This document shows, piece by piece, positions 1-21,742 of a DNA stretch of 64,000 nt (positions within the stretch are counted from its first letter, which is position 1; the number at the start of each line of letters is the position of its first letter). A program made the translations under genes and the position numbers. A model generated the notes under the pieces. The model saw nothing but the letters and a program-made list of their open reading frames with translations, did no database searches and had not been told where the DNA came from. This stretch comes from Vicinamibacteria bacterium (GTDB taxonomy: Bacteria; Acidobacteriota; Vicinamibacteria; Marinacidobacterales; Marinacidobacteraceae). The DNA lies in assembly GCA_963422395.1 (NCBI GenBank), contig OY729431.1, positions 192,001 through 256,000 on the forward strand, read 5' to 3'.

Positions 1-81
1 CCGCACTTCCTTCGGGGTGAGGTCGGCGCGGCCCACCACCAGGGGCGGCGGCCCCGGTGCGGCGCTGCTGCTGCTGCTCAC
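1..81 (-). CDS. Partial phage gene (5' end only), hypothetical; possibly a tail assembly chaperone
   Basis: GTG at 81-79 overlaps the TGA of the upstream gene (GTGA). Reads MSSSSSAAPGPPPLVVGRADLTPKEVR and is open to the window edge. Confidence 0.4.
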   Translation of the reverse strand, partial: MSSSSSAAPGPPPLVVGRADLTPKEVR

Positions 82-1052
82 GCCGCCGCTGCGACCCCGG
101 CCTCGACGAAGGAGAAAGCCAGCCCGACCGCGCCGTGCTCGTCGTAACGGCAGCGCACCTCGGAGCGGTCGCGCGGGGCCATGGCGACCATCGCTTCCAT
201 CGCCGGCGCCACCGGCTCGCCGGGCTTCGGGACCGGCACCCGCGCCGGAGCGACCCGGATCCGGCGGCGGCTCGCCGCGTCCTCGACCGCGAGGTAGCAG
301 CGGTCGCCGATATAGAGGGTGTCCCCGGTGCGGAGGATGGGGTCCGGCAGGTGCTCGGCCCCCTGGATTTCGACGGAGAGGATGCCGTCGGACGGCAGCG
401 CGACCGCCTTCACCACCTCGACCTGGTGGTGTTTCGCGCTGCCGTCCATTTGCGAGGCGGCAGCGGCCCCGCCGCCGGCCAGCGTCACTTCGGTCCGGCA
501 GCGAATGAGCCGGCCGCCCCTTCCAGCGACCGTTACCGTGAGCGTCGAGCTCCCGCCGGCCTTCCAGTAGAGCCAGAGCGAGCGGTTCGCCCCCGAGCCG
601 TACACCGGATCCAACTTGAGAACCTGGTCGTTCGAGGCGGCGGCGGTGACCGAGTCTGCGTTCGCCACCTCCAAGTGCAGCCGCTTCCGGCCGTTCCTGG
701 GGAGGTGGATCGTCGCCGGGAGGCCGGTGCAGGACACTGCGAGCGGGTCGCGGCTCGCTTCATCTTCGGCGCCGAACCGGCCGAGGCTGCCGCGCACTCC
801 GGCGCCGTGCACGAGCGGGGTGACCGGGATGCGGAAGAAGACGCCGGCGTGGCGGAGCCGGGCGGCGAAGGCGAGGATGGCGGCGGCCTGGTCGCGGTTG
901 CGCCGGGGCGCGATGTTCAGCGTGCCGCCCCAGTTCCAGGCGGGGATCTGCGTCTCGACGAGGCGCCCTCCCTCGGTCTGGAGGAGGCGGGTCGTCCCGG
1001 GGAGGTCGATTTCCAGATCGCGGACGGAAACCGGAAGATCGAGGGTGGCCAC
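78..1052 (-). CDS. Distal tail (Dit-like) protein with an inserted Ig-like domain
   Basis: 324 aa. N-terminal W..GTLNIAP..ARLR and C-terminal LAFSFVEA resemble siphovirus distal tail proteins. Residues at 480-734 match the Ig-like repeats of the tail-tip gene. Confidence 0.6.
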   Translation of the reverse strand: MATLDLPVSVRDLEIDLPGTTRLLQTEGGRLVETQIPAWNWGGTLNIAPRRNRDQAAAILAFAARLRHAGVFFRIPVTPLVHGAGVRGSLGRFGAEDEASRDPLAVSCTGLPATIHLPRNGRKRLHLEVANADSVTAAASNDQVLKLDPVYGSGANRSLWLYWKAGGSSTLTVTVAGRGGRLIRCRTEVTLAGGGAAAASQMDGSAKHHQVEVVKAVALPSDGILSVEIQGAEHLPDPILRTGDTLYIGDRCYLAVEDAASRRRIRVAPARVPVPKPGEPVAPAMEAMVAMAPRDRSEVRCRYDEHGAVGLAFSFVEAGVAAAA

Positions 1053-1074
1053 GGTGCGGGAGGGGGTAAGTGTT

Positions 1075-1653
1075 TCACTCGGCGGGAGGGCCTTCGCCTC
1101 CGGGGAGGGTCCAGGCGCCTTCGTCGTCCTCGATACGGCACACCGCCCCGCGCCTTTCCAGGGTGCGGAGGCGGGAACGCGCCGCCGGCGCGGAGAGTCC
1201 GAGCGCGGCGGCGACTTCGCCGGCAGTGCGGGGCCCGGCGGCCAGCTCCGCCAGCACCGCGCGCTGGGCCGGGGTGAGCGAAACGAGCCGCGGGCCGAGG
1301 GGGGCTTCGTCGAGCGGGGGCGCTTCGGCCGGCGATGGAGCGGCTTCGGCCGGGGGCGGCGGGAAGAGCGCGGCGAGGGCTCGGCTTCGGCGCGGGAAGA
1401 AGTCGGGGACGGCGAAGAAGTCGAGGTCGCGGCTCATCAGGAGCGCGTAGGCGCGGGTGCGGTGGCCGGAGCGAGCGGCGCGGGCGGCCGGGCCGAAGAC
1501 GGCGGTGCGCTGGTTTTCCGGGGCGGCGGCGGCGATCTCGGTCAGGCGCGCTGCCGCCGGGCTCAACCGGCGCCGGCGCTTCGGCTTCGAGGGTGGAGTC
1601 GGCGAAACCTTCGGCGGAGCCGGTGCCGCCTGCTTCTCGGGAGAGCCGCCCAT
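1075..1653 (-). CDS. Winged-helix DNA-binding protein
   Basis: C-terminal LTPAQRAVLAELAAGPRTAGEVAAALGLSAPAARSRLRTLERRGAV is an ArsR/MarR-like wHTH; the N-terminal half is Pro-rich. Confidence 0.7.
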   Translation of the reverse strand: MGGSPEKQAAPAPPKVSPTPPSKPKRRRRLSPAAARLTEIAAAAPENQRTAVFGPAARAARSGHRTRAYALLMSRDLDFFAVPDFFPRRSRALAALFPPPPAEAAPSPAEAPPLDEAPLGPRLVSLTPAQRAVLAELAAGPRTAGEVAAALGLSAPAARSRLRTLERRGAVCRIEDDEGAWTLPGGEGPPAE

Positions 1654-1907: not shown

Positions 1908-2600
1908 TCAGAAACCCGCGTAGTGCGGCGCGGCGGCGAAGATGCGGCGGATGTAGCGGCGGGTCTCGGTGCAGTGGCGGGCGGCGCGGAGGCAGTTCGC
2001 CTCGTCCTCGATGTGCTCGAACCAGTGCCGCCGGTCGCATTCGCCGCGGCTTCCGCAGCGGCGGGCCTCGCGGAGCATCCAGCCGTAGCCGGCGTTGTAG
2101 CTGCCGAGGGCGAGAGCGAGCGCGGCGGCAGCGTCGGCGGTGCGGGGGCGCCAGAGCGTCTCCCAGCGCTTCAGCAGCCGGCACTGCGCCGCCACTGCCC
2201 AGCGCGGATCGAGTGGGCCGCCCCAGTCGGCGAGCTCGGGATACCAGCGGCGCAGGTCGGCGGCCGTCGGGGCGGTGATCTGGGCGAGGCCGCGGGCGAG
2301 GCCGGAGTCGGCCGCCGGGTTCCCGGAGGACTCCGCCATCATCTGGGCGGCGAGGAATGCCCGCCCCGAGGCGCTGAAGCCGCAGCGCTTCCCTTCGCGC
2401 CGGATCAGCTCGCGCCAGCGGAGCGCCCGGCCCGGCGGCGGCCCTTCGAGGAGCGACGCACCGGCGGCGGGGTTCGGGGGGGCGGCGGGGGGCCGAAGGA
2501 GGGGAGCTGCCGCTGCCGCCGTGACCGCGAGGGCGAGCCCGGCGCCCAGGAGGGCGGCGAGGCCCCGCGCCTGGAGGCCCCGCGCCTGGTTGCCGCTCAG
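1908..2600 (-). CDS. Lytic transglycosylase (SLT) endolysin with N-terminal hydrophobic/signal segment
   Basis: SLT motifs LAAQMMAES, GLAQI, SYNAG and ETRRYIRRI. The frame is open upstream of ATG 2342 through GLAALLGAGLALAVTAAAA to a CTG at 2600 overlapping the upstream stop. Start uncertain. Confidence 0.8.
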   Translation of the reverse strand: MSGNQARGLQARGLAALLGAGLALAVTAAAAAPLLRPPAAPPNPAAGASLLEGPPPGRALRWRELIRREGKRCGFSASGRAFLAAQMMAESSGNPAADSGLARGLAQITAPTAADLRRWYPELADWGGPLDPRWAVAAQCRLLKRWETLWRPRTADAAAALALALGSYNAGYGWMLREARRCGSRGECDRRHWFEHIEDEANCLRAARHCTETRRYIRRIFAAAPHYAGF

Positions 2601-3109
2601 CGGAAGGTGACCCCGATCTCGATGGCGGCCCGCCGCTCGGTGACGGAACGCGCGCCCGAGACGACGACCATGGTCTCGCCCTGGTGGCGGACCTCGATGT
2701 CGCTGCCGGCGAGCGGAGGATGCGCGGCGGCGCCGGTCGCGGTCCAGGGGTCGGGGGACGGGCGCCGCCAGTCGCTCGCCGTCAGCCGGAGCATCACGAA
2801 GTCGGTGAGATGGTCGAGCAGCTCGGCATCGCCTTCGGCGGCAGCGAAGGTCAGGCCCAGGCGCACCCGCGCACCCTCCGGCTCTTCGTCCACTCCGTCG
2901 AGGGTGGCCACCGCGTAGGGGGTTCGCGCCGACTCCGGCGCCGCACCCCGGAACACTGCGGGCGGTGCGGGCGGCGGCAGCCGGCCGTTACGGCTCGCAT
3001 CGGAGTCGCCGGCGTCCGGCGCCGCCGCTTCGAGGCGTGCTTCCCGGAGCGCGTCCATGGCGAGGTAGCGGCAGGCGTCGAGCGCCCGCACCCCGATCGA
3101 GGCGATCAC
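2597..3109 (-). CDS. Tail terminator-like (DUF3168-like) protein
   Basis: GTG at 3109 overlaps the TGA of the head-closure gene. 170 aa with VFRGAAPESARTPYAVAT, like the AP..A..PY motif of tail terminators. Confidence 0.5.
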   Translation of the reverse strand: MIASIGVRALDACRYLAMDALREARLEAAAPDAGDSDASRNGRLPPPAPPAVFRGAAPESARTPYAVATLDGVDEEPEGARVRLGLTFAAAEGDAELLDHLTDFVMLRLTASDWRRPSPDPWTATGAAAHPPLAGSDIEVRHQGETMVVVSGARSVTERRAAIEIGVTFR

Positions 3110-3525
3110 CCGACGCTCACCGGATCTGTGGGCGGTGGCGCCGGTTCGGCGGGGGGCGATTCTGCGGGTTCTGCGGGGCCGGCGGCGGTGAGCGGCAGCT
3201 CGATCAGCCGGGGGCGGTTCTGGGCTCCCACCCGGCGCGGCGGCCCGCAGTCCCAGCGCCGCCCGCGCCCCAGGACCACGCTCGTCTCGTCGAGCCCGGC
3301 CAGCGGGCGCAGGGTGATCGTCGCGGTCATCCGGTCGCGCTGCCGGTCGAAGTCGTCCGCCGGCCCCCCGCGCCCGTCGCGCCATTCGCAGGGGATGCGC
3401 TGGTGGACGGTCTCGGTCCAGCGGGCCGCCCCGGAGGCGGCGTCCGGCGGAGCCGGCGAGCGGAGGATCACGGCGATGCGGGAGTTGAAGCGCTGCGCCA
3501 CCGTGCGGCGCGGGAGCTTGCCCAT
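3106..3525 (-). CDS. Head closure / head-tail adaptor (SPP1 gp16, HK97 gp7-like)
   Basis: 139 aa with RFNSRIAVI...SGAARWTETV...IPCEW...TITLRPLAGLD...V...GRRW...LIEL pattern. Confidence 0.55.
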   Translation of the reverse strand: MGKLPRRTVAQRFNSRIAVILRSPAPPDAASGAARWTETVHQRIPCEWRDGRGGPADDFDRQRDRMTATITLRPLAGLDETSVVLGRGRRWDCGPPRRVGAQNRPRLIELPLTAAGPAEPAESPPAEPAPPPTDPVSVG

Positions 3526-3547
3526 CGTTCCGTCTCGCGGCGCCGGA

Positions 3548-4045
3548 TCAGGGCGGGCCCCAGTCGAGGCTCTCGGGTTCGACCGGCTGCACCACATCGA
3601 GGGCCCGGTCGCCGCCGCCGGGGAGGATCGGACCGTAGCGCGCGCCGCTTTCGCGGGCACCCGCCGCCGGCGACTCGATCGTGGCGTCCCAGTGCCCGCC
3701 GCTCGCGGCGGCCGCGACCAGCCGCCCTTCCCAGCTCCCGACCTGGGACCAGTGGACGCCGTCCGGGGACCAGACGGCGCGCACCGCCGCGGGGTAGCCG
3801 GCTCCGGTGTTCCGGGCGATGTCGCGCATCACCGCCCCGGGCAGCCCGCCGAGGCGGATCCGCGCCGACGGCGGCGCCGAAGAACCGGCGGCGGTCGGGG
3901 TGACATCCACCTCGAGCACCAGCCCGCGGGCGGGGCGGTACACCTTCCCGGCGAACTCCAGCTCGGCGTCGCCGGCCCAGAGGTGGACGACTCCCCCCTC
4001 CGACTCCTCAGCTCCGAGCGAAACGAGGTCGGCGCTCAACGGCAT
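3548..4045 (-). CDS. Baseplate hub / minor tail protein
   Basis: 165 aa with HLWAGDAELEFAGKVY and a C-terminal GDRALD..V....LDWG typical of short siphovirus hub proteins; GAGGA RBS upstream. Confidence 0.55.
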   Translation of the reverse strand: MPLSADLVSLGAEESEGGVVHLWAGDAELEFAGKVYRPARGLVLEVDVTPTAAGSSAPPSARIRLGGLPGAVMRDIARNTGAGYPAAVRAVWSPDGVHWSQVGSWEGRLVAAAASGGHWDATIESPAAGARESGARYGPILPGGGDRALDVVQPVEPESLDWGPP

Positions 4046-4254
4046 GTCGCGGTCCTCTGCCGGCGTGGGGACGGGTCGGCGGGTGGGATTCTGTCAGTAG
4101 GGGCGGGTTCGCCGGCGCGCGCGGGTCTGCTACTTTCCGTTTCGTGGAGGACCGAAACTCGACGACGCGGCAGCTCCCGGCAGCAGGGAAGAACGCGATT
4201 CGAGCCCCGGCCTTCGGATTCGAGAGCGCCGCCGGCGGGCGGAGGGGGTGAGTC

Positions 4255-4674
4255 ATGTCGTTTCTGGCCAGCATGGGAACCGGGTATATCTCCGGCAAGG
4301 TGTGGCTGTGGGCCGCCCTCATCACCTGCATGGGCGTTGCGGCCACGCTGCCGGACTGGATGCTCTACCCCACTTTCGTCGCCCTGCCGCTCCTCTACTT
4401 GTGGTCGCTCAGAGCGTCGACGCGGGCGGCTCGGATCGTGCGAGGAGAGGGGGCCGGCGTCCTGGAGACTTTCGATGCCAAGTTGGAGGTCGCGCTCAAG
4501 GTGCCGATCTTCCTCATCGTCTTCTGGGGCGGCAGCGGTGCCATCGCGCTCTTCAAGTCGCAGATGACGGTGTATCTGTGGTGGGCCGCAATTGTGATCT
4601 TCTTCGGCATCTGGATATGGCAGAGGCTGCATTCCGAGGCGGTGGAAGAGGGATACGAAGACGAGTACGACTGA
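4255..4674 (+). CDS. Hypothetical multi-pass membrane protein (moron-like)
   Basis: 139 aa with about four hydrophobic segments and an acidic tail (EEGYEDEYD); GGAGG upstream; followed by a GC hairpin at about 4677-4700. Confidence 0.65.
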   Translation: MSFLASMGTGYISGKVWLWAALITCMGVAATLPDWMLYPTFVALPLLYLWSLRASTRAARIVRGEGAGVLETFDAKLEVALKVPIFLIVFWGGSGAIALFKSQMTVYLWWAAIVIFFGIWIWQRLHSEAVEEGYEDEYD

Positions 4675-4720
4675 TCCCTGAGCCGCCGGCCGCTCGGGGG
4701 TTTCCGGTTACGCTACGGCG

Positions 4721-4963
4721 ATGGTTTCCTCCGAATGGTTCCAGCTCGCCGCGGTCGTCACCATCGTCGGGGCGGGGCTCGCGGTGGTCCGGTCTTTCTG
4801 GCGGCTCGAGCTGGCCTTGCAGAAGCAACTGACCGAGCTCTCCACCGCGATCTCGCACCTCGCGGATGTCGTCCTGGATATCCGCAAGGAGCAGCGGCTG
4901 CTGCTCCGCGACCGCGAGCGCGATGTCGGGCGCCGGGAGGCGCTGGCCGCCACCCACAAATAG
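4721..4963 (+). CDS. Small single-TM coiled-coil protein, holin-like
   Basis: 80 aa: one N-terminal TM (WFQLAAVVTIVGAGLAVV), then a heptad-like helix and a charged C-terminus. Confidence 0.5.
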   Translation: MVSSEWFQLAAVVTIVGAGLAVVRSFWRLELALQKQLTELSTAISHLADVVLDIRKEQRLLLRDRERDVGRREALAATHK

Positions 4964-5001
4964 AGCCGGAGCGCCGGGCCGGGGAAGTCAGCCCGGCGAA
5001 G

Positions 5002-5418
5002 TCAGAGGCCGAGCCGCTCGGCCATCCGGCCCAGCGCGCGCTCGACGGCGGCTTCCCCCGAGTGCTCGACCGCCTGCTCCGCCCAGCGGTTGCCGGCGAC
5101 CGGCCCCGCCCGGTGGTGGGTGAAGCCGCGCGAGGTCCAGATTCCCTGCGGCGCCATCTTCACCGAGGCGCGCGCCACCGACGGGTCGCGGCTGCGCCCG
5201 GCCTGGACGCGCACGCTCCGGGCGAGCGGGATTTCGGCGCCGATGCTCGACTTCGCCCGCGGCCGCCGCTGCCGGGGAGCGGCGCGGCGCACCGCCCGCG
5301 CCAGCTCGACCGCCCCGGCCCGCGCCGCCGCCCGCATCACCCGCCGCCCCGCGCGCCGGTCCAGCCGCGAAAGCTCCGCCTGCAGTTCCGCCGCCCCGGA
5401 GAGTTGCGCGTCGAGCAC
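5002..5418 (-). CDS. HK97 gp10-like tail completion protein
   Basis: 3' part of ORF 5002..8259 from GTG 5418: LSGAAELQAELSRL...VMRAAARAGAVELARAVRRAAP...GFTHH...VAGNRWAEQA. Confidence 0.65.
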   Translation of the reverse strand: MLDAQLSGAAELQAELSRLDRRAGRRVMRAAARAGAVELARAVRRAAPRQRRPRAKSSIGAEIPLARSVRVQAGRSRDPSVARASVKMAPQGIWTSRGFTHHRAGPVAGNRWAEQAVEHSGEAAVERALGRMAERLGL

Positions 5419-5505
5419 CGGAGGAGGGTACCCGGGGCGGGCGGCGGGGTGTCCGGCCCGCCGGGGCGGGTGACGGGCGGCGGGTAGCGGGTACCGTTTC
5501 GGGTC

Positions 5506-7488
5506 GTGGCCGCCCCGAAGAACCGCCGCCTGGTCGTCGACCTCGTCGCCCGGACCTCGAAGTTCACCAGCGGCCTCGACCGCAGCCGGAAGTCCCTCGA
5601 CAAGTTCCAGCGGAGTTCCCGTGGGTTGAAGGGGGAGCTGGAAGGGATCGATTTCAAGGAGGTGGCGGAGGGTGTGACCGCTTTCGCCCGGGGCGCCGTG
5701 GAAGCCCTCGAAAAGGCGGCGTCTTTCGGCGACACCCTCGCCAAGCTCTCCGACCAGACCGGCTTCTCGGTCGAGCGGATCCAGGGGATGCGCCACGCCT
5801 TCGAGCTGGGCGGGCAGTCGGTCGAGCGGACCGACGAGGCGCTGAAGAAGTTCACCGTCAAGCTCGGCGAGATGAAGGCCGGGACCGGCGAAGTCGTCTC
5901 CGGCCTGGAAAAGCTGGACCCGAAGCTCCTCGATCAACTGCAGCGGGTGAAGGACGGTTCCGAAGCCTGGGATGTGCTCATCCGGCGGGTGGGCGAATAC
6001 GACACCGCTACCGAGAAGGCGGCGACGCTCAAACTGTTCGTGGGCGAGCGCCGGGCGACCGAGCTGGCGCGGGCACTCGAAGGCGGCGTCGAGGCCATCG
6101 ACGCGGCGACCGCGAAACTGCGCGGCGCCGGCATCCTCATCGACGAGAAGGCGGCGGCGCGCGCCGAGGAGCTGGCCGACAAGCTGACCGAGATGCGGAC
6201 GACCTGGCAGGCGGGCTTCTCCCAGGCGATCCTCCAGAACTCGGACCGGATCATGGAGGTTCTGAAAGACATCGAGAGGATCATGCCGGGGATCGTCAGG
6301 CAGCTGACGGCGGTGGTCGAGAAGTTCGCTGCGGTGCTCGGCCCGCTGCTCGCGGACGATTTCCGCGGCTCGCTGATGCGGATCGCGGCCTTGACCGCCG
6401 GCGGATACGGCGTCACCAAACATCCCGCCGGCGCCATCGGCGGTGCGGCCATCGGTGTCGTGGTGGAATCCGGGAGCATTCTGGATGACGTCGAGGAATG
6501 GTTCAGGGACATGTATGAGCGCGACAGGATTCACACCGAGGCTTATGTGAGGGATATGTTCGGCGGATCCGGAAGTGCAGAAGCGGCATTCGCCGAGAAA
6601 ACAGAAAAGATGGATGAACGGCTCCGGCAGTTCGCGCGGGATTTGGAGAATCGGGGCGGCCCTCTGAATTCGATCGTCGAGCCGTTGGCCGATGGAATCG
6701 CGGACGCCGCCGCGGCGAGAGTCGAAGCGGAGCTCGCCCAGGCGGAGCTCGCCCAGGCGGCCCTCGCCCCGCCTCGAATCCAGCGCCCGGCCCCGCTGCC
6801 TCTGCCGGAGATCCCGGCGCGCGTTCCGCTCACTCTGCCCGAGGAGTGGCTCCGCCCGGAGAAGCCGCCGGAGAAGAGCTGGGCGGAGCTGATGCGGCAC
6901 CCGGCGGTGGCGGCGCTCGCGAGTGTCGAGCCGCCTTCGCCGCCGCCGCCGGAGGCGCGGGAATGGCTCGCCGACCTGCTCCGGGAGCAGGAGGAGTTCC
7001 TCGCCCAGCAGGAGCGGATCCGGGAGTCGATCCGCTCCTTCGGCGACGCCTTCGACGACGCGCTCCACGACGCGATCCTCGGCACCGAGAGCCTGACGGA
7101 CGCGCTGAAGGAGCTGGGCCGCACGATCGCCTCCGACCTCCTGCGGAACTTCGTCACCGGTCCGATCTCCGACTTCCTGTCTTCGTGGATCTCGGGGAGC
7201 CTCGCCTCCCCCGTTTCCACCTTGCCGGCGGGCGGTTCCTGGAACCTCCGCCCGGTCGCGCCGAACTGGTCGCCCTCCGGGAGCAGCCTGATCGGCCGCT
7301 CTTCGGCACCGCCGGTGACCGTCGGGCCCATCAACCTGAGCGTCCAGTCCACCGACGGGCCGGGGGTCACCCGCGCGCTGCTCACCGCCGAGCCCCACTT
7401 GACGCGGGCGGCGCACGACGGGGTGCTCACCGCCATCCAGGAGCCGGGGCCGATGCGCGCGGCGGTCGCCGACGCCGCCCGCTACTGA
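5506..7488 (+). CDS. Tail tape measure protein
   Basis: 660 aa helical protein. N-terminal LVVDLVARTSKFTSGL, LAKLSDQTGFSVERIQ and C-terminal FGDAFDDAL...SLTDALKEL resemble lambda-like tape measures. Confidence 0.85.
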   Translation: MAAPKNRRLVVDLVARTSKFTSGLDRSRKSLDKFQRSSRGLKGELEGIDFKEVAEGVTAFARGAVEALEKAASFGDTLAKLSDQTGFSVERIQGMRHAFELGGQSVERTDEALKKFTVKLGEMKAGTGEVVSGLEKLDPKLLDQLQRVKDGSEAWDVLIRRVGEYDTATEKAATLKLFVGERRATELARALEGGVEAIDAATAKLRGAGILIDEKAAARAEELADKLTEMRTTWQAGFSQAILQNSDRIMEVLKDIERIMPGIVRQLTAVVEKFAAVLGPLLADDFRGSLMRIAALTAGGYGVTKHPAGAIGGAAIGVVVESGSILDDVEEWFRDMYERDRIHTEAYVRDMFGGSGSAEAAFAEKTEKMDERLRQFARDLENRGGPLNSIVEPLADGIADAAAARVEAELAQAELAQAALAPPRIQRPAPLPLPEIPARVPLTLPEEWLRPEKPPEKSWAELMRHPAVAALASVEPPSPPPPEAREWLADLLREQEEFLAQQERIRESIRSFGDAFDDALHDAILGTESLTDALKELGRTIASDLLRNFVTGPISDFLSSWISGSLASPVSTLPAGGSWNLRPVAPNWSPSGSSLIGRSSAPPVTVGPINLSVQSTDGPGVTRALLTAEPHLTRAAHDGVLTAIQEPGPMRAAVADAARY

Positions 7489-7518
7489 CAGCCTGTCTGT
7501 GGTCGACCTGCTCACGCG

Positions 7519-8190
7519 ATGATCGTCCCGAGGAACTGGCGCACGCTCGCCGACGCCTGGATCGTGGACCGCGCCACCATGGTGGACCGGCTCCGCGCCG
7601 ACGCTGCCGACCGCGCCGCCGTCGAGGCCTCGGTCGAAGCCGCCGAGACCAGCGTCGAGACGCTGTGCGGCGGCCCGCTCCGTCTCGCCGAAGTGGTGGT
7701 GCGGCTGCCGCGCGGGGAGAGCCTGACCGCCGGTCCGCTGCACCTTCGCGGCGGCCCGCTCCGGCACCTGATCCGGATCGAGGCGGAGGCGGCGTCCGCC
7801 GGCAGACCTTCCCTCACTCCGACCGCCCTCGCGTCGCTCCGTCGGGAAGGGGACCCCGAGGTGAAGCCCGCCGAAGCCGGCTACCACTGGAGCGGCCAGA
7901 CGATGATCGGCCCCGGCGGCGGCGCGGTGCGCCTCGCCTGGGTGCAGCGCTGGCGCGGGCAGGTCCCGCACTTTTCCGAACTCGATCTCTCCGGTCTCGG
8001 GGAGCCGTCGGGCTTCTCCGCCTTCACGCTCTACGCGCAGGTCGGCTGGGCCTCCGGCGAGCAGCCGGGCCCGATCCGCGAAGCGGCCATCCTGCTCGCG
8101 AGCCACGCCTACGACGGGGCGAGCGGAGAGGCCGCGACCCGCGCCGCCGAGCGGCTGTTGGAGCCGTTCACCGCGGCCTGGACCGCGTGA
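7519..8190 (+). CDS. Head-tail connector (phiE125 gp8 / HK97 gp6-like)
   Basis: 223 aa with DRLRAD...AAETSVETLCG and VGW....PGPIREAAILLASHAYD...AERLLEPF. Confidence 0.7.
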   Translation: MIVPRNWRTLADAWIVDRATMVDRLRADAADRAAVEASVEAAETSVETLCGGPLRLAEVVVRLPRGESLTAGPLHLRGGPLRHLIRIEAEAASAGRPSLTPTALASLRREGDPEVKPAEAGYHWSGQTMIGPGGGAVRLAWVQRWRGQVPHFSELDLSGLGEPSGFSAFTLYAQVGWASGEQPGPIREAAILLASHAYDGASGEAATRAAERLLEPFTAAWTA

Positions 8191-8206
8191 TGATCCGGTC
8201 GGCACT

Positions 8207-8272
8207 ACCCCCCCGGGGGGGTGAAAGGTCGGGCGCACGGCACGCGAAACCGCGCCCAACCTCCGCTTTCAC
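8207..8272. other. Palindrome plus long inverted repeat; candidate cos/packaging site
   Basis: Perfect 16-bp palindrome ACCCCCCCGGGGGGGT (8207-8222), then GTGAAAGGTCGGGCGC...GCGCCCAACC..CTTTCAC (8221-8272), in the non-coding gap upstream of terL. Confidence 0.45.
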
Positions 8273-8305
8273 GGATGTTCGCTCGAGCGGCGGCCAGCCA
8301 ATGCG

Positions 8306-8575: not shown

Positions 8576-8683
8576 GGAAGGCGCTTCCAGCGGCGCTCCG
8601 GCGGGAGTTCGCTTTTTCGCGGTTTGCGGAAAAATGTTCCCCGTGCCGCAAAAGCCGCCGGTCGCGCGGGAGGCCGTCCCTCG

Positions 8684-9150: not shown

Positions 9151-9162
9151 ACAGGGGGCGGG

Positions 9163-12086: not shown

Positions 12087-12096
12087 CCTGCCCTCC

Positions 12097-13138: not shown

Positions 13139-13158
13139 CACAGGAGGTTTCCCGCCCC

Positions 13159-14613: not shown

Positions 14614-14640
14614 GAAGCGCCCCTCGGGGAGGAACGAAAC

Positions 14641-15435
14641 ATGACCGCAGCCATCCGGCCGCAGCGCTACGCGGCAGTGGACGCCGAGCGCCTCCGGTTC
14701 CAGCTCTGGAAGGACTCCCAGTGGCTCGACATCGCCGGCGTCCGCTCCTACTCCGGCCCCGACCGCACCGCGAACGAGTGGGCGGTCGGCGGCCCCCACA
14801 CCGAGGGCGAGGACTACGAGCGCGGCAAGACCGTCTTCGGGACGATGCAGCTCGATCTCCTCTGGTCGCCGCTGGTCGAGGGGCAGGCCGAGCTCGAGAA
14901 GATCTACTTCTCGGCGGATGAACGCCGCTTCCGGGTGATCCACCGGGGCGGCGGACGGGACGCCCACAAGGGCGACGGGACGGCGAGTCCGGGCCGGGCG
15001 CTCTCCGGCGCCGTCACCGGCAACTCCAAGGTCTTCACGGTAGCGAAGCAGGCGGGCGGGAACAGCGACGAGGGCACCCGCCGCACGAAGGTCCTCGCGG
15101 GCTACGACCTGGCGCAGCGCGGCGGCGGGATCGGCGTCGGCGTCGGCCTGAAACGGGGCAAGACCTATCACTTGGTGGTGATCGAAGATGTCACCGCAAA
15201 GCTCACCGCGAAGGTGCGGGCGGTGCCCGGCAAGGAACTCGCCGACATCGCCGCCGGCGAGTTCGTGGTGATGAAGCTGCCGCTCACGATGGAGTTCCAG
15301 GCCGTCGTCCAGGCGATGGGGATCTCCGTCCCCAGCGGGCAGGCGGGCTCCGGTTCGACGACGCTCCGGCTGAACAGCAGGCCGGACTACGGGATCGACG
15401 AAGAGAGCGCCCAGACGATCTACGACGGGCAGTAG
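14641..15435 (+). CDS. Major tail tube protein with an internal insertion
   Basis: IAGVRSYSGP...G...FG.MQLDLLWSP...GQAEL......ERRFRV, then about 110 extra residues, then LTMEFQAVV....SV......STTLRLNSRP. Confidence 0.7.
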   Translation: MTAAIRPQRYAAVDAERLRFQLWKDSQWLDIAGVRSYSGPDRTANEWAVGGPHTEGEDYERGKTVFGTMQLDLLWSPLVEGQAELEKIYFSADERRFRVIHRGGGRDAHKGDGTASPGRALSGAVTGNSKVFTVAKQAGGNSDEGTRRTKVLAGYDLAQRGGGIGVGVGLKRGKTYHLVVIEDVTAKLTAKVRAVPGKELADIAAGEFVVMKLPLTMEFQAVVQAMGISVPSGQAGSGSTTLRLNSRPDYGIDEESAQTIYDGQ

Positions 15436-15487
15436 CGGCCGGGAGATCCGGGCGCTTCTCGGGCGGTAGCCGGCCCTTCCTCTCCCC

Positions 15488-18400
15488 GTGGGTTTCTGGG
15501 CCAGTCTCTTCAGCTGGGGGACGCTCCAGAGCGCCCTCATCGCCGCCGCCATCAGCGTCGGCACCCGGGTCGCCTACCACCTCCTCTCCGACAAGAAGGG
15601 CCTGGACCCGCGCGAGCGCGAACGCTGGCAGCCGCAGACTCCGCGCTCACCCGCCGAAGTTCCTCGGCGGGTGATCGTCGGGCGCGCCCGCGTGGGCGCG
15701 ATCAATGTCTGGTATCGGGTGGACCGCGCCGCCGGAGCGCTCCATTCGCTCTGGATCGTCGCCGACGCCGACGAGGCCGACAACCAGCTCGGGATCGTCG
15801 AGGTGGAGGTGGACTCCTACCGCGTTCCCCTGGCTGCTGCGGACGCGGATCCGCTGCATCCCGTCGGGGCGAACCGCCGCGAGGAGATCGGCGCCCGCGG
15901 CGGCGACCTCGATGTCGTCTTCGACGGCAGCGGCGAACAGATCGGCAACACCCGGCTGCGCGAAGCCGGGTTCGAGCCCAGCGGCCTCGACGCGCCGAAC
16001 ACCATCGAGGGGGTGGCGTGGCTGCTGGTGACGCAGCGCAATCCGCTCGAAGGGAGCTGGAAGAACCGGGGGCTGCCCGAGGTCTTCGCCACCGTCCAGC
16101 GCGTCCGGAAAGGCGGCGACGGCAGCGCCCAGGAGAACCCCGCCGCCCTCGCCGGGTGGTGGCTCGCCCGCCACTCGGTGAACACCGACGCTGCCTCGCT
16201 CGCCGCCGCCGAAGCCGCCTGCGCCGAGATGATCGTGAACGGCGACGGCCAGGCGGTCGCCCGCTTCCGCTGCGGCGGCATGATCGAGAGCATCGATCCC
16301 TTCTGGCGGGTGGTGCGCGCCTTCGAGGAGGCGATGGACGGGCGCATCCTCATCGGCGGCGACGGGCTGGCCCGCTTCTACGCCGGCGTCGCCAGCCCGC
16401 CGACCGCATTCCTCATCGAGGACACCGTCGGGGCGCCGACGGTGCAGCACGAAGGGCGGCGGCGCGAGCAGCGCAACATCCTCCGCGCCCGGATCCGCGC
16501 CCACTCCGATCCCCGCCGCCGCGGCGCCGAGGTCACCGTCGAGCGCCGCGTCGAAACCTCGATCGAGAAGATCGGCGAGTGGGCCCACGACGCCGGCTTC
16601 CTCCGCCTGGTCGCCCACGAAGGCCAGGCCCGGCGGCTGCTCGCCAGCCAGCTCCGCCGCTCGCAGCGCCCGATCGTCGTCGCCGCCACCCTGCCGGAAA
16701 CCTTCGACACCGTGCGGATGCGCGCCTGGCAGCGCGGCAGCGTCCACCTCGACGCCCTCGGCGCCCGCGGTCCGTTCCGCCTCCTCGCCGACCCGAAGTG
16801 GAACCGCAGGGCCGGAACCGTCGCGGTCGAGTTGATCGAAGACCCGACCGCCCTCTACTCCGACTCCGAGGACGCGACGCTCTCGCCGCGGAACGAGCCG
16901 TCCGAGGAATACGAGCTCCCCCCGCCGGAGAACCTGCGCGCCGACGCCGACGCGGTGGTGCAGCACGACGGCACGGTCTCGGTGCAGACCGAGGTGGAGT
17001 GGGATCCGCCGCCCAAGCTCGCCCGTTGGGTGCTCTTGCAGCTCCGGCGGCCGCCGAGCACCGTCTGGGGGGACGGCTATTCCGGCCCCGCGGCCGGCCC
17101 GGCGCTGCTGACCTACACCCCGCCCGGCCAGGCCCTCGCGCTGCGGGCGCGGTTCTTCGACCCGCGGGGCCGGCGCTCCGAGTGGTCCAAAGTCCTCTCC
17201 TTCACCCCGGGCGGCGACCTGCAGCCGCCGGCGGTGCCGGAGAACCTGACCGCCGAGCCGCTGTCCGACACCACTGCGCTCGTCACCTGGAAGCCCCCGC
17301 CGGATCCGGACTACGCGAGAGCGGAGCTCTTCGCCGCCGAAGCCGACGCCGCCGCCCCGGACGCCGAAGACGCGGCCGCGCCGCGGGCCGGCGACTCGGG
17401 AAACGCCGGCGAAGGCATCCAGCAGGGGGTCCTCACTCTCGAAACCGGAGCTGCCTTCGTCTGGGCGCGCGCCCTCGACCACAGCGGCAACAAGTCGGCC
17501 TGGATCGGGCCGGTGCTCGCCCGCGCGAAGCCCCCCGCGACCGAAGTCGATGTGCAGATCCTCTACCGCCGGTCGCGGATCCGCCCGCAGCCCCCGCCCG
17601 ACCTGCCGCTCGATCAGATCTCCCAGACCGACTGGATGGCTGACTTCAACTCCGTCGGCGCCCTGACGGTCGGCGTGTCGCTCTGGCAGGCCAACCGCAC
17701 CGTCCTGCTCTCCCGCGCCGCCGCCGGCGCGGATCCGAGAGTCCTGAGCCGCTCCGCCTGGCAGGTCTCCCTGGCGGTGTCCGCCCCTTCCCTCGAGGAC
17801 AAAGTCGAACCGGGGAATCAGCGGGCCTTCTCGAACCAGGCGGCGAAACCGGTGAAGCCGATCTACCAGCCGGGCGAAGACGACGGCTGGGCGGTCGGCG
17901 GTCCGCTGACCAAGTGGACCGACCAGGCGAGCGGGGTCCTCTGGTACGGCAACGACCGCTGCGACGGGACCGGGGACGCCAAGTGGGTCGTCCACCGCAC
18001 CGCGACCAAGACCCAGGAGTTGATCGAGGGGGACGAGTACACTCCCCCGCAGCACGACGCCACCCCCTGGAGCGAGGTGGAGAGCTACACCCGCTCCGGA
18101 CCCGGCCCGCAGCCGCAGCCGAAGGACCTCCCCGAGATCCTGGTCGGCGAGACGAAGACCTTCACCGTCGGGGAAAACCCCTTCGCCGACGCCGCCGACT
18201 CCGACGAAACCGCCCCCGACCCCTCGGTCAGCGTAACGATCGAGCGGGAGAGCACCGCCACCGCCACCGTCTCGACGGCATGGCAGAACGACATCCTCGA
18301 GCTCTCGATCACCGGGGGTTCGGTGGGGGTGCTGGTGGTGCGGGTCACCATCAGCGCCCCGCAAAGCGGGCGCCTCGACGAAGTGAGCAGCTTCCGGGTG

Positions 18401-21379
18401 CGGGTGGTCGCCCAGAAGAAGTCCGGCTCGACGGTGAAGATCGATGGGGTCCCGGACACGCTCAACCTCCGCCCGGGCGAGACCCGCGACGAGGACTTCA
18501 CCGTCCAGCCGGCGGCGGCGGTCACCCGCGTCGCGGCGATCGGCTCGGCCGCCGCGATGCTGACCGCTTCGCTGCCGGACAACGACGGCGGCGCCCGCCG
18601 GCTGCGGATCGCGGGCGAGCAGAACCGGTCTCGCAAAGACAGAGAAGCGGTGGTGACCGTCACCGCTGAGCTCGCGCTCGACGACGGTTCGACGGCCAGG
18701 GACTCGGCGGAGCAGACCGTCACCCTCGAACCGGACCCCTGGATCACCCTGCGCCGGGGGCCCAGGATCGAATTCGAGCCCGAAGGGGGCGTCCACTACA
18801 TCCGGCTCGACTACGGCCCCAAGCTCTCCGACCGTACCTCCCGCTTCGAAGTCGTTATCGCTTCCGGGGATGCGGCGAGCACTGCGTCGGTGAGCATCGA
18901 CCAGTACGGCGCCGGCGGCCGGAAGCTCGACGACGCCCTGCGGTTGGTCCTGAACGACAACCGAAGCGGCCGGCAGCAGCTCAGCGGCAGTGTCCGGGTG
19001 TGGCACCGACAGACCTACCAGGGCACGACCATTCGGCGGAGCGCCTCCGCCGACCTCCTGGTCACCGTGAAGCCCGGCGAGAAATCGCCGAAGGGGCCGG
19101 GAATCCACGACCTGCCCGGGAAGGAGGAAGTCGCCGTCGGCGAGACGAAGACCGTGACCTACGAGATCGAGGTCGCGGGCGGGGTGGAGAACCTGACCGC
19201 CGGGAACCTCGCCGTCAGCGTTCCGGTGGGCGCCCACCGGGTAACCGTCCAGCCCGACCCGGCGCCGGCGAAGGGAGCTACCCGCAGCTTCCGGGTGACC
19301 GGTGTCCAGGCCGGGAGCGCGACGGTGACCGTGACGCTGACCGACAACGAAGGGCAGCAGGTCTCCGAGGATTGCGTCGTCGAAGTGACCGGGCCCGCCG
19401 CCCCCTCCTGCTCCGGCCTGCCGGAGCGGGTCACCTTGACCCCGGGCGTCTCGCGGCGGCTGGCCTTCACGGTGGCGAACGCTTCTTCGGTCGCTGCCGC
19501 CGCCTCGAACGCCAATGTCTGGGTCGACCAGATCTACAGGAGCGGGGCGAACCGCTCGTTCTACCTGAGATGGAAGAAGGCCGGGAGCGCGACGGTGACC
19601 GTCACCGTCACCGGTGCGGGCGGCCGCGACACCTGCCTGATCGCGGTCACGCTCGAGCCGCGGACCGGCCCCTCCTGCTCCGGCCTGCCGGAGCGGGTCA
19701 CCCTGGCCCCGGACGAATCGCGGCGGCTGGCCTTCACGGTGTCGAACGCGGCTTCGGTCGCTGCCGCCGCCTCGAACAGCGATGTCCAGGTCGGCCAGAT
19801 TTACGGGAGCGGGGCGAACCGCTCGTTCTATCTGGACTGGAAGCGGGCCGGGAGCGCGTGGGTGACCGTGCGCGTCGCCGGTGCGGGCGGCCAGGTCGTG
19901 AGCTGCCGGATCGAGGTCACGTTGTCGCCGCGCCCGATCGATCTGCCGTCGAGCGACACCCTCCGGGTCGGCCAGAGCCGGACCTATTCCATCACCGTGG
20001 CGTCCCGGCGGCAGCTGCGGGTCGAGACCTCGAAGAGCGGCATCGTCAGGGCGTCGCTCAGAGGGGGGACCGGCGACACCCGGCGGCTCACGGTGGAGGC
20101 GCTCGCGGTGGGAGTGGTGGATGTGACCGTAACCGCCGCCGGCATCCGGGGCGGGGATCCGAGTTCCGACACCGTCACGATCACCGTCGAAAAGGCGGTG
20201 CTGCACGCCGAGATCAGCGGCCTCAAGGGCTCGTTCGAAATGGATGTCGGCGAGACCGACTCCGACAGCTTCACGGTGCGGAACACTTCGGGCGTGTCGG
20301 TGTCCTCTGCCGCCAGGAGCATCGCCACCGCCAGCGTGTCCGGCTCCGGCAGCTCGCGGACCCTGCGCGTCACCGGGAAGAAGAGGGGCCGTACCACGGT
20401 GACGGTCACCGCCGCCGGAACCGGCGGCGGCCGCCCCGCCGAAGAAGATCGGGATGTGGAGGTCACCACCGCGGCGGTGCCGGACGCCGAGATCAGCGGC
20501 CTCGATACCTCGGTCACTCTGGATGTGGACGAGACCGACTCCGACAGATTCACGGTTCGGAACACTTCGGGCGTGTCGGTGTCCTCTGCCGCCAGGAGCA
20601 TCGCCACCGCCAGCGTGTCGGGCTCCGGCAGCTCGCGGACCCTGCGCGTCACCGGGAAGGCGGGGGGCCGGACCACGGTGACGGTCACCGCCCGCGGGAG
20701 GAGCGGCGGGGAGGACGCCGAGGAGGATGTGGATGTGACCGTGAACGCGCCGACGGTGTTGGATGCCGAGATCAGAGGCCTCGTTTCCAGGCTGCCGGCG
20801 ATGGATGTCGGCGAGAGCGAAACCGATGGATTCACGATTCGGAACGCCTCGCGGGTGACGGTGCACGGATGGGACCGCGACATCGCCCGCGCCAGCTTGT
20901 CCGGCTCCGGCAGCTCGCGGACCCTGCGGGTTACCGGGGTGTCGGCGGGCGATACGACGGTGACCGTCACTGCCTACGGGAAGAACGGAGGCGCGAACGC
21001 GGCGAAGGATGTGGAGGTGACCGTCAACCCGCCGCCGAACCCGCCGCCGACGCTCACCGCTCTCTCGTCCGCGTACGCGCTGAAGACCTACCCGGACAGC
21101 GGCTACTCCATCACCGAGTACTACTCGGTGTCCCCGACTTCCACCACGGTGAGCGTGTCGAGCTCGAACACCTCGCTCGTCAAGATTCGGCAGAACGACA
21201 CCACGGGAACGACTCGTAACTTCTCCGTGTGGGCGGCGGGCCAACGTACCGGCAGGGCCACGGTGACGGTCACCGCCCGCGCCAACGGGAAGACGACCAC
21301 GAGGCGGATCCTGGCCACCGTGGCGAAGCCGGGGACTCCCGATCCCGATCCCGATCCCGATCCCGATCCGATCGCCTGA
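15488..21379 (+). CDS. Tail tip / central fibre protein with FN3 and multiple Ig-like domains
   Basis: 1963 aa. N-terminal PRRVIVGRARVG, ENPAA and RFRCGG (tail-tip-like); FN3-like PPPENL...WDPP and PPAVPENLTA...VTWKPP; many Thr/Val-rich Ig-like units (G.ATVTVT); terminal DP repeat. Confidence 0.85.
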   Translation: MGFWASLFSWGTLQSALIAAAISVGTRVAYHLLSDKKGLDPRERERWQPQTPRSPAEVPRRVIVGRARVGAINVWYRVDRAAGALHSLWIVADADEADNQLGIVEVEVDSYRVPLAAADADPLHPVGANRREEIGARGGDLDVVFDGSGEQIGNTRLREAGFEPSGLDAPNTIEGVAWLLVTQRNPLEGSWKNRGLPEVFATVQRVRKGGDGSAQENPAALAGWWLARHSVNTDAASLAAAEAACAEMIVNGDGQAVARFRCGGMIESIDPFWRVVRAFEEAMDGRILIGGDGLARFYAGVASPPTAFLIEDTVGAPTVQHEGRRREQRNILRARIRAHSDPRRRGAEVTVERRVETSIEKIGEWAHDAGFLRLVAHEGQARRLLASQLRRSQRPIVVAATLPETFDTVRMRAWQRGSVHLDALGARGPFRLLADPKWNRRAGTVAVELIEDPTALYSDSEDATLSPRNEPSEEYELPPPENLRADADAVVQHDGTVSVQTEVEWDPPPKLARWVLLQLRRPPSTVWGDGYSGPAAGPALLTYTPPGQALALRARFFDPRGRRSEWSKVLSFTPGGDLQPPAVPENLTAEPLSDTTALVTWKPPPDPDYARAELFAAEADAAAPDAEDAAAPRAGDSGNAGEGIQQGVLTLETGAAFVWARALDHSGNKSAWIGPVLARAKPPATEVDVQILYRRSRIRPQPPPDLPLDQISQTDWMADFNSVGALTVGVSLWQANRTVLLSRAAAGADPRVLSRSAWQVSLAVSAPSLEDKVEPGNQRAFSNQAAKPVKPIYQPGEDDGWAVGGPLTKWTDQASGVLWYGNDRCDGTGDAKWVVHRTATKTQELIEGDEYTPPQHDATPWSEVESYTRSGPGPQPQPKDLPEILVGETKTFTVGENPFADAADSDETAPDPSVSVTIERESTATATVSTAWQNDILELSITGGSVGVLVVRVTISAPQSGRLDEVSSFRVRVVAQKKSGSTVKIDGVPDTLNLRPGETRDEDFTVQPAAAVTRVAAIGSAAAMLTASLPDNDGGARRLRIAGEQNRSRKDREAVVTVTAELALDDGSTARDSAEQTVTLEPDPWITLRRGPRIEFEPEGGVHYIRLDYGPKLSDRTSRFEVVIASGDAASTASVSIDQYGAGGRKLDDALRLVLNDNRSGRQQLSGSVRVWHRQTYQGTTIRRSASADLLVTVKPGEKSPKGPGIHDLPGKEEVAVGETKTVTYEIEVAGGVENLTAGNLAVSVPVGAHRVTVQPDPAPAKGATRSFRVTGVQAGSATVTVTLTDNEGQQVSEDCVVEVTGPAAPSCSGLPERVTLTPGVSRRLAFTVANASSVAAAASNANVWVDQIYRSGANRSFYLRWKKAGSATVTVTVTGAGGRDTCLIAVTLEPRTGPSCSGLPERVTLAPDESRRLAFTVSNAASVAAAASNSDVQVGQIYGSGANRSFYLDWKRAGSAWVTVRVAGAGGQVVSCRIEVTLSPRPIDLPSSDTLRVGQSRTYSITVASRRQLRVETSKSGIVRASLRGGTGDTRRLTVEALAVGVVDVTVTAAGIRGGDPSSDTVTITVEKAVLHAEISGLKGSFEMDVGETDSDSFTVRNTSGVSVSSAARSIATASVSGSGSSRTLRVTGKKRGRTTVTVTAAGTGGGRPAEEDRDVEVTTAAVPDAEISGLDTSVTLDVDETDSDRFTVRNTSGVSVSSAARSIATASVSGSGSSRTLRVTGKAGGRTTVTVTARGRSGGEDAEEDVDVTVNAPTVLDAEIRGLVSRLPAMDVGESETDGFTIRNASRVTVHGWDRDIARASLSGSGSSRTLRVTGVSAGDTTVTVTAYGKNGGANAAKDVEVTVNPPPNPPPTLTALSSAYALKTYPDSGYSITEYYSVSPTSTTVSVSSSNTSLVKIRQNDTTGTTRNFSVWAAGQRTGRATVTVTARANGKTTTRRILATVAKPGTPDPDPDPDPDPIA
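19406..19925 (+). repeat. Tandem duplication of an Ig-like module (2 copies, 267-bp period)
   Basis: SCSGLPERVTL...SGANRSFYL.WK.AGSA...C.I.VTL starting at 19406 and 19673. Confidence 0.9.
20207..21030 (+). repeat. Tandem triplication of a second Ig-like module (279-bp period)
   Basis: AEI.GL...DV.E...D.FT.RN...SGSGSSRTLRVTG...TTVTVTA at 20207, 20486 and 20765. Segments 20270-20380 and 20549-20659 differ at only 2 positions. Confidence 0.9.
21338..21367 (+). repeat. (CCCGAT)5 microsatellite encoding a Pro-Asp tail
   Basis: Read directly from the sequence at the end of the tail-tip gene. Confidence 0.85.
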
Positions 21380-21421
21380 TCCGGGGCGGCGGCGGGCCGG
21401 GGGGCATCGAGGGGGAGGGGC

Positions 21422-21742
21422 ATGGCGCGCGCTCCCCGCTGGCGGCGCGATCCGTCGGCGCGCGTCCGGCGCCCGGCGCGGCAGCCCGCCTCGAAGCGCG
21501 GTTACGGCCGCGACTGGCGCCCGCTGCGCGACGAGGTCCTCGCCGCCGAGCCGCTCTGCCGCCGCTGCCGGGCGGCAGGGCGCACCGCCGCCGCCGAGCT
21601 GGTGGACCATGTGATCCCCGTCGAGATCGCCCCCCAGCGCCGGCTCGACCCGAAGAACCTGCAGCCGCTCTGCCGTCCCTGTCACGGCGAGAAGACCGCC
21701 GAGGACCGCGCCCGGTATCGGCAGGAGATCGCCGGATGGTGA
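21422..21742 (+). CDS. HNH endonuclease (HK97 gp74-like terminase accessory)
   Basis: KRGYGRDW..LR..VL..EPLCRRC...VDHVIP......D..NLQPLCRPCH.EKT. Confidence 0.92.
   Translation: MARAPRWRRDPSARVRRPARQPASKRGYGRDWRPLRDEVLAAEPLCRRCRAAGRTAAAELVDHVIPVEIAPQRRLDPKNLQPLCRPCHGEKTAEDRARYRQEIAGW

Follow-up and report, generated by a model that had tools for sequence, protein, structure and literature searches.

What kind of element lies upstream of dnaX in the genome of a Vicinamibacteria bacterium (GenBank assembly GCA_963422395.1, contig OY729431.1)? We analysed a stretch of 64,000 nucleotides (the window; genome 192001-256000 on a single 2.91-Mb contig), in which positions 1-21742 carry genes for a siphovirus-type virion in an unusual order. 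An interpretation made from the letters of the window (the sequence-only reading) had offered two answers: a host-domesticated particle system resembling gene transfer agents (GTAs), or a phage lineage with a non-canonical genome plan. The element starts 10.4 kb to the left of the window, and the insertion measures 32,168 bp from the 3′ end of a tRNA-Ser(GGA) gene (genome 181574) to the stop codon of an HNH endonuclease gene. We hold, with good confidence, that it is a 32.2-kb prophage of temperate siphovirus type between tRNA-Ser(GGA) and dnaX, and that window 1-21742, roughly its right-hand two thirds, is its late (virion and lysis) region. Thus, we favour the second of the two answers, as the gene order is found in independent assemblies, its junctions are tight or overlapping and no close relative turned up in the collections searched. 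As a prophage the element is ordinary; unusual are its gene order and its standing without known close relatives.

Following the sequence leftward for 20 kb beyond the window, we found, from left to right, a host AcrB-type gene, tRNA-Ser(GGA), an integrase gene, a 167-aa open reading frame (ORF), a DUF3631 ORF, small orphan ORFs, a low-GC stretch and then the leftward virion genes. The features that define the left arm and the right boundary are as follows.

Genome 181486-181574: tRNA-Ser(GGA), intact.
Genome 181746-183674: P4-type tyrosine integrase, 642 aa, with Arm-DNA-bind_3, Phage_int_M and Phage_integrase domains.
Left arm, after the 167-aa ORF: large ORF for a DUF3631 replication-type protein (profile hidden Markov model, HMM, match to DUF3631).
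Genome 189280-189900: low-GC (53-59%) non-coding stretch of about 600 bp, between the early and late arms.
Window 21743-21948: right junction zone, with the dnaX start and upstream signals and no copy of the tRNA 3′ end.
Window 21925-23712, plus strand: dnaX, to the right of the element.

The integrase gene starts 172 nt past the tRNA, and the C-terminal catalytic domain of its product is uninterrupted. The sequence-only reading had seen no small terminase (TerS), integrase or replication gene. This holds inside the window, and the integrase and the replication gene lie 8-10 kb to the left of it.

We searched for dnaX in 24 relatives and scanned the loci for tRNAs within 1.5-kb flanks. Among the 14 same-family genomes with a dnaX locus, tRNA-Ser(GGA) lies within 1.5 kb of dnaX in 12 (the exceptions being G007 and G001), and in 11 it is upstream of dnaX and co-oriented with it (it is inverted in G014). 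A start codon (ATG in seven, GTG in one) and a conserved LFG motif follow about 10-40 nt past the tRNA in 8 of these 11. The same tRNA-Ser/dnaX adjacency is present in two same-order genomes. In the present genome, the two genes are 32.3 kb apart; set against their adjacency in relatives, this separation identifies the element as an insertion into a conserved tRNA-Ser/dnaX junction. The site is empty in 11 of the 14 same-family genomes.

The composition of the element is foreign to its host. Its GC content is 72.6% versus 68.4% for the genome, and no 32-kb genome window reaches the value of the element. Its tetranucleotide distance is 0.188; 32-kb windows taken every 40 kb average 0.070 and reach 0.171 at most. 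Such an unameliorated composition argues against long residence and long-term host selection. The intact ORFs had been taken as a mark of long-term selection; with the most foreign composition in the genome, we do not retain that explanation.

The distribution of the hallmark genes is narrow. Among the genomes searched, which include no other species of the same genus, the capsid was matched in this genome and in one other of 41 genomes, and in none of the 24 same-family genomes. The other capsid match is a weak one (E 2.5e-8, 29% identity) and comes from G033, a genome that is unpublished. The large terminase (TerL) had no match in 54 other same-order genomes, and its matches in 9 of 400 other same-phylum genomes are all at 27-31% identity. 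In a phage collection the identity does not exceed 33%, the best matches being E. coli vB_EcoS phages and Salmonella ST64B, all HK97-like. Further matches to TerL were one locus in GTDB representatives (27%), seven in IMG/VR (24-34%) and four in JGI metagenomes (25-34%), and a word-indexed protein search returned two at 26-27% identity. Thus, no close relative is present in any collection searched, TerL being at most 34% identical. Three orphan accessory proteins had no full-length homologue in the protein collections searched for each. Because an integrase sits at the tRNA, the site is empty in relatives, the element is absent from them and its composition is foreign, we conclude that the element is a horizontally acquired prophage.

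We next describe what the prophage encodes. Since DNA of about 72% GC produces long spurious ORFs in all frames, genes were called by frame plots of GC periodicity at the third codon position (GC3). The ORFs at 5002-8259 on the minus strand (beyond 5418) and at 15647-21685 on the minus strand were discarded as composition artefacts antisense to real genes. A plus-strand ORF at 5090-5473 was likewise dropped, as finer GC3 plots and translations favour the minus-strand gene at 5002-5418. The rightward genes and the gap between them are listed below.

4255-4674, plus strand: 139-aa protein with about four hydrophobic stretches (GC3 frame, translation).
4721-4963, plus strand: 80-aa protein with one hydrophobic stretch (GC3 frame, translation).
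5506-7488, plus strand: tape measure protein (TMP), 660 aa (nine PHROG TMP families, best E 2.8e-18).
7519-8190, plus strand: probable head-tail adaptor, 223 aa (phrog_442, E 5.8e-5).
8191-8680: non-coding 490-bp gap with repeats (no coding periodicity).
8681-9061, plus strand: 126-aa protein with three hydrophobic stretches (translation).
9208-10851, plus strand: TerL, HK97/ST64B-like, 547 aa in the recorded form (PF03354, PF20441; phrog_9, E 1e-112).
10863-12086, plus strand: portal (PF04860, E 6.6e-26, profile positions 4-320 of 321).
12251-13138, plus strand: head maturation protease, ClpP/S49-like (PF00574, E 1.1e-12; phrog_94, E 1.1e-21).
13159-14613, plus strand: HK97-fold major capsid protein, 484 aa (PF05065, E 4.3e-34, positions 2-278 of 280; phrog_10, E 7.5e-46).
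14641-15435, plus strand: probable tail tube protein, 264 aa (PF16461, E 5e-3; phrog_41).
15488-21379, plus strand: tail tip/central fibre protein, 1963 aa, J-like in one region and ending in a tandem array of Ig-like repeats (phrog_5616 tail fibre, E 3.6e-19; phrog_31 central fibre J, E 1.5e-13; Big_2).
21422-21742, plus strand: HNH endonuclease, 106 aa, last gene of the element (PF01844, E 5e-9; phrog_144, E 1.2e-26).

The leftward genes of the window are the following.

1-81 (genome 191512-192081), minus strand: 189-aa gene, with its 5′ end in the window (GC3 frame, translation).
78-1052, minus strand: tentatively a Dit-like protein, 324 aa, its middle domain Ig-like (phrog_1302 distal tail protein, E 1.1e-3).
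1075-1653, minus strand: 192-aa protein with a C-terminal MarR-type winged helix (PF12802, E 6e-9; phrog_1687).
1908-2342/2600, minus strand: SLT lytic transglycosylase (endolysin) with a hydrophobic N-terminal stretch (PF01464, E 4.9e-6 for the long form; phrog_669 endolysin, E 6.9e-19).
2597-3109, minus strand: probable tail terminator, 170 aa (single-sequence AlphaFold2 model, pLDDT 62, and fold matches).
3106-3525, minus strand: 139-aa orphan (GC3 frame).
3548-4045, minus strand: tail protein, 165 aa (phrog_2048 'tail protein', E 8.7e-4).
5002-5418, minus strand: probable HK97 gp10-like tail completion/Neck1 protein (PF04883, E 1.4e-3, 20.0 bits against a 21.4-bit cut-off; phrog_5, E 1.9e-4).

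These lists bear out the claim of a near-complete, intact siphovirus-type virion gene set on both strands, with strong HMM support for TMP, TerL, portal, protease, capsid, tip, HNH, SLT and the winged-helix protein. The head and packaging hallmarks (TerL, portal, protease and major capsid protein) are all present, above their Pfam cut-offs and full length. A non-contractile tail set is present as well, consisting of TMP, tube, the terminator fold and the J-like tip, and no sheath family was among the matches of the scanned proteins in the Pfam and PHROG HMM scans. No frameshift or internal stop had been seen in the letters, and the hallmark ORFs indeed run unbroken along their profiles. The reported overlaps are also real, with GTGA at 78-81 and 3106-3109 and CTGA at 2597-2600. 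The capsid ATG is preceded by AGGAGG. Genome-wide, the capsid is the single PF05065 match and there is a single TerL.

Individual labels differ in strength. On the plus strand, the sequence-only labels TMP, TerL, portal, protease, capsid, tip and HNH stood, and those of connector (adaptor) and tube stood with moderate confidence; the ESM Atlas neighbours of the tube are lambda-type tail tube families (Phage_TTP_11/12 and Phage_tail_3, at 0.91-0.94). The label 'holin' for 8681-9061 was without tool support, its product having no family match in the HMM scans; on our own reading of its hydrophobic stretches, the protein may be holin-like. The product of 4255-4674 had no family match in the HMM scans either and is a candidate lysis or membrane protein. 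On the minus strand, the gp10-like, SLT and winged-helix labels were supported, the first of them moderately, with a GC3 of 0.95-0.97 in the minus frame. The gp10-like gene is the single leftward gene between two rightward units. The labels 'hub' (the 165-aa protein, small and matched by phrog_2048 only) and 'head closure' were without tool support. For the latter, 3106-3525, we found no family match in any library and no homologue beyond itself among 5.8 billion clusters, and by position and our own reading it is a head-closure candidate.

Modelling the 170-aa protein, we obtained moderate support for a tail terminator. The top rows of Foldseek are tail terminators (E 4e-3 to 5e-2), and the VIA comparison gives Z 8.4-6.3 to Douge, NF5, the RcGTA virion 6TBA, T5 p142 and lambda gpU. 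As Z 6-8.4 is a middling range, we rely on the list being dominated by terminators and not on Z alone. A word-indexed protein search with this protein returned itself only. For the 324-aa protein, the Dit label stays weak: an ESM lead points to T5 pb9 families at 0.78, a full HMMER scan of 1.84 billion representatives gave Ig-domain matches only, and the AlphaFold2 model (pLDDT 40) was unusable. The 192-aa winged-helix protein may be a regulator, and a TerS role is also conceivable. The 189-aa gene had no HMM match. Its −1 frame is open through an adjoining small 75-aa ORF (genome 191165-191392), which is the G/GT layout; a canonical slippery heptamer was not identified in it. We read it as a putative tail assembly chaperone G.

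Is the gene order real? TMP precedes TerL, and the immediate downstream neighbour of the tube gene is the J-like tip gene, so the order is non-canonical on the strong calls alone, as the sequence-only reading had noted. That reading had allowed for an assembly artefact. We aligned Logan contigs of four public runs (X1, X4, X5 and X6, from three studies) to window 3000-22900. The contigs of X1, which is nearly identical to the reference and may be its source sample, span 3000-6255 and 6792-15928. Those of X4, a run of the same study that differs by single-nucleotide polymorphisms and indels, span 3000-6821, 6792-13149, 13151-15928 and 16009-19431. In X5 and X6, from the two other studies, contigs bridge the junctions from the 139-aa through the 80-aa to the gp10-like gene, from the adaptor across the gap to TerL, from capsid through tube to tip, and from HNH to dnaX. 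The HNH-dnaX junction is bridged in four of four runs. Because contigs from three studies bridge these junctions and reproduce the local order, we set the assembly artefact aside.

Among the contig alignments, joints with about 20 letters on one side were taken as GC-rich chance matches. A joint between opposite strands at 3000/19738 is unexplained; an inverted repeat of Ig-coding DNA (19544-19777) lies near its right side, the partner arm (511-734) being outside the compared stretch. These arms are the Ig domain of the Dit-like gene (511-734) and Ig repeats of the giant tip gene (19544-19777); their DNA is 71-73% complementary. The tip gene also contains tandem repeats of 279 nt (three copies) and 267 nt at 19398-21033.

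A second question is whether the order is native to the phage. The unusual junctions are GTGA/CTGA overlaps or gaps of 22-52 nt, with no gene fragments or repeat scars. The gene set is complete and intact, and the composition is too fresh to have left time for a series of clean rearrangements. On these grounds, we read the scrambled order most readily as a plan of the phage itself and not as decay. In the literature, as far as it was accessible to us in part, nothing on such a siphovirus gene order turned up.

Comparing the runs, we observed that divergence is patchy. X4 differs from the reference in the patches 12445-13629 and 15685-17935, and other stretches of 3.8 kb are identical. In the other runs' contigs, the patchy divergence (0.4-1.2%) affects the protease-capsid and tip genes alone. 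The frame is kept by both a 12-nt deletion at 12933 (X4 and X5) and a 3-nt insertion at 13070 (X4). The differences listed for X1 in the giant tip gene (40 of 295 differences are listed) include none of 15 at the second codon position, which hints at purifying selection on this gene.

The non-coding DNA around TerL may hold signals of the late region. GTTGCGGCTCTCGGrGATT occurs twice in the 8191-8680 gap, 125 nt apart, and these are its sole two copies in the genome. Three GGGATTCCG repeats with 15-nt spacing stand at 9112-9150, just upstream of TerL. The repeats in 8191-9207 are candidate late-promoter or packaging signals. From the TerL and HNH genes together, packaging would be HK97-like, possibly with its site in the repeat-rich gap 8191-9207, and cos-type packaging is a reasonable, putative assignment. 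An HNH gene adjoining the terminase genes is the rule in HK97-type cos modules; here it starts 10.5 kb downstream of the TerL stop.

Further left, the integrase carries three tandem copies of Arm-DNA-bind_3 (DUF4102) ahead of its catalytic domain (pairwise scores 138-147, BLOSUM62); one arm-binding domain is usual in P4-family integrases. The N-terminal part of the DUF3631 ORF had no HMM match and, on our own reading, resembles a primase-polymerase. The low-GC region contains TTTTCAACAGG iterons, a run of about 17 G and hairpins on GGGAGGGCCGGTGT arms (two per strand), and may be an origin or control region.

Combining these features, we propose the following plan. The P4-family tyrosine integrase would have placed the prophage, splitting the tRNA-Ser/dnaX pair that is adjacent in relatives. 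The left arm would consist of the integrase, the DUF3631 replication protein and small orphan genes, all rightward, followed by the 600-bp low-GC control region with its iterons and hairpins. A leftward block would come after it, with the tail protein, the head-closure candidate, terminator, SLT, the winged-helix protein, the Dit-like protein, the G/GT-like chaperone and a protein with a coiled coil. Next would be two genes for membrane proteins, both rightward, and the single leftward gp10-like gene, ahead of a rightward block of TMP, adaptor, holin-like protein, TerL, portal, protease, capsid, tube, giant tip and HNH. The late genes would thus be transcribed as several divergent and convergent units.

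Several observations weigh against this prophage being whole and mobile. We find no copy of the tRNA or its flank in genome 183000-218000 that could serve as the right attachment site (attR). The search covered exact 14-mers, 16-mers with 1 mismatch, 20-mers with 2 and 24-mers with 3. The tRNA 3′ end, with up to 3 mismatches, has no second copy above chance in the window or the genome. Between the two boundaries, k-mer sharing and local alignments are no better than in shuffles, and no repeat of at least 11-14 nt is above chance; a shared 8-mer, CCCGAAAT, was rejected as an att core on the same ground. Relatives have nothing that corresponds to the DNA from the HNH stop to the dnaX LFG motif. 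In this genome it provides the start of dnaX, which is ATG 21925 or GTG 21949, with upstream signals in DNA adjoining the prophage end. Apparently, the ancestral dnaX start was replaced; the right end may be deleted and excision may be lost. The recombination core may be so short that it escapes detection, or a deletion of the right junction may have left the prophage anchored. The sequence-only reading had named a lysogeny and replication module with an att pair to the left, sporadic among relatives, as the outcome that would speak for an ordinary prophage. The integrase and replication module and the absence in relatives were found, and the att pair was not.

The gene content raises similar points. 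TerS had no family match among the scanned proteins (Pfam, PHROG, NCBIfam), and a repressor was not recognised in the HMM scans, the sole helix-turn-helix protein being the MarR-type one at 1075-1653. In the SLT frame, there is no ATG, GTG or TTG from CTG 2600 to ATG 2342, that is, over the first 86 codons. ATG 2342 stands 3 codons ahead of the catalytic Glu and CTG 2600 overlaps the stop of the upstream terminator gene, so the SLT gene has either a non-canonical coupled start or a lost one. X5 carries a 1-nt deletion at 11114, inside the portal gene. No relative with the same order was found, and the native plan rests on tight packing and intactness. The head-closure, holin, chaperone and 165-aa tail protein labels are without tool support. 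Given that neither attR nor TerS was found, the prophage may or may not still be able to excise, package its DNA and form particles.

Much of this is what one would see in an anchored defective prophage that lost attR, and perhaps right-end genes (TerS, for example), and so became locked in place, its order partly a product of rearrangement after integration, and no longer forming infectious particles. The missing attR repeat, the dnaX start region replaced relative to 11 relatives, the TerS not found in the proteins scanned, the SLT without a canonical start and the portal deletion in X5 all point that way, and an identical HNH-dnaX junction in runs of three studies is expected if the element is immobile. 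We regard this explanation as possible but doubtful, since all hallmark ORFs are full length against their profiles, the integrase is intact and the listed coding indels are mostly in frame. The rearrangements that it invokes also fit poorly with unusual junctions that are tight or overlapping, without gene fragments or repeat scars, and with a composition that has had little time to ameliorate, hence little time for several clean rearrangements. A different partition of the locus, into a P4-like element or satellite at the tRNA (genome 181575-189300) beside an older, integrase-less phage remnant (189900-213750), is very unlikely. The arm with integrase and primase-type gene does resemble satellites and integrative islands, the 600-bp low-GC gap separates the halves, and an imperfect repeat CGGGGATCGG..GTTTCCGGTTCG occurs at 189305 and 213800. 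This repeat scores 30, however, within the range of shuffles (maximum 33), and no tRNA-derived repeat marks the internal boundary. Very high GC3 is common to both halves, as is the CAACAGG motif, shared by the iterons of the low-GC gap and a site upstream of TerL. A further integrase or replication gene is absent from the virion half.

We consider a host-domesticated particle system, the other answer of the sequence-only reading, highly improbable. Such a system would be GTA-like or PBSX-like, its virion genes being kept by the host for particles that carry host DNA or kill competitors. It would account for the complete-looking virion gene set with intact ORFs, the lack of attR, the same junction in samples of three studies and the lack of second-position changes among the 15 listed X1 tip-gene differences, and the terminator model does match the RcGTA virion chain 6TBA_4A (Z 7.7). 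Yet an integrase and a replication gene are attached, the element is absent from 24 same-family (capsid) and 54 same-order (TerL) genomes, the site is empty in 11 of 14 relatives, and this is the most foreign 32-kb stretch by GC and tetranucleotides. The order is also unlike RcGTA, and of 16 proteins scanned against NCBIfam, TMP alone matched an RcGTA family, RcGTA_tape, at 22.4 bits against a cut-off of 220, about a tenth of it. An intermediate course is rather unlikely as well: a phage of an unsampled siphovirus lineage, its order native, that lost attR, became fixed in the species and has its virion genes under purifying selection would be at an early stage of domestication toward a PBSX- or GTA-like particle producer, with its composition not yet ameliorated.

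Returning to the prophage of temperate siphovirus type, we compared it with known systems. It resembles HK97-like siphoviruses (HK97, and the ST64B/E. coli vB_EcoS group of the best TerL matches), with which it has in common the HK97-fold capsid with protease and portal, a TerL of PF03354 and PF20441, the gp10-like neck protein and HNH, along with tape measure, tube, terminator, J-like tip and lysogeny via a tyrosine integrase. It differs from them in a TerL of 30-33% identity, in TMP and adaptor upstream of TerL, in the tip following the tube, in neck and tail genes on the opposite strand, in an HNH gene 10.5 kb from TerL and in a TerS that was not recognised. With RcGTA it shares a compact set of siphovirus-like genes, a very large tip protein, the terminator fold and the weak RcGTA_tape match. 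Unlike RcGTA, it has an integrase and a replication gene, a tRNA site empty in relatives, no presence in relatives and a foreign composition, and its genes are not co-directional from TerS to tip: they lie on both strands, with TMP upstream of TerL.

The left arm recalls P4-family integrase islands and prophages in its Arm-DNA-bind_3 N-terminus and in an integrase immediately 3′ of an intact tRNA gene, and differs from P4-family islands in the three tandem arm-binding domains and the lack of a tRNA-end direct repeat at the far boundary. Capsid-forming phage-inducible chromosomal islands (PICIs) are phage satellites that encode a capsid, portal, TerL and HNH of their own but no tail, for which they rely on a helper. 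The element resembles them in its integrase and primase-type gene, after which come head and packaging genes of HK97 type and HNH. In contrast to such a tail-less satellite, it has a length of 32 kb, lysis genes and the genes for a complete tail (TMP, tube, terminator, Dit-like protein and the 1963-aa tip), and for these reasons we rejected that identity. As there is no second TerL or HK97 capsid, the genome holds no helper of this HK97 type.

With the prophage reading, a 32-kb island of high GC is accounted for and one GTA candidate drops out. Of interest for phage genomics are its tail, neck, head and lysis genes, which look complete as a set yet are distributed over the two strands in an unusual order. 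Should this order be native to a viable phage, assembly does not depend on strict synteny in the siphovirus late operon. Annotation based on synteny would mislabel such phages. The attR-less state with a rebuilt dnaX start offers a small case study of prophage anchoring beside an essential gene.

Two other parts of the window, to the right of dnaX, drew our attention. Window 33000-37500 has a lower GC content (61-63%) and few ORFs passing the coding-frame filter, and may be another foreign island. Window 54204-55931 encodes an AAA_21/AAA_15 ATPase, and 57310-62046, on the other strand, a 1578-aa protein with DUF4011, a helicase (AAA_11/AAA_12), an MTES_1575 nuclease and DUF3320; the ATPase and the DUF4011 protein have what we take to be a defence-type look.

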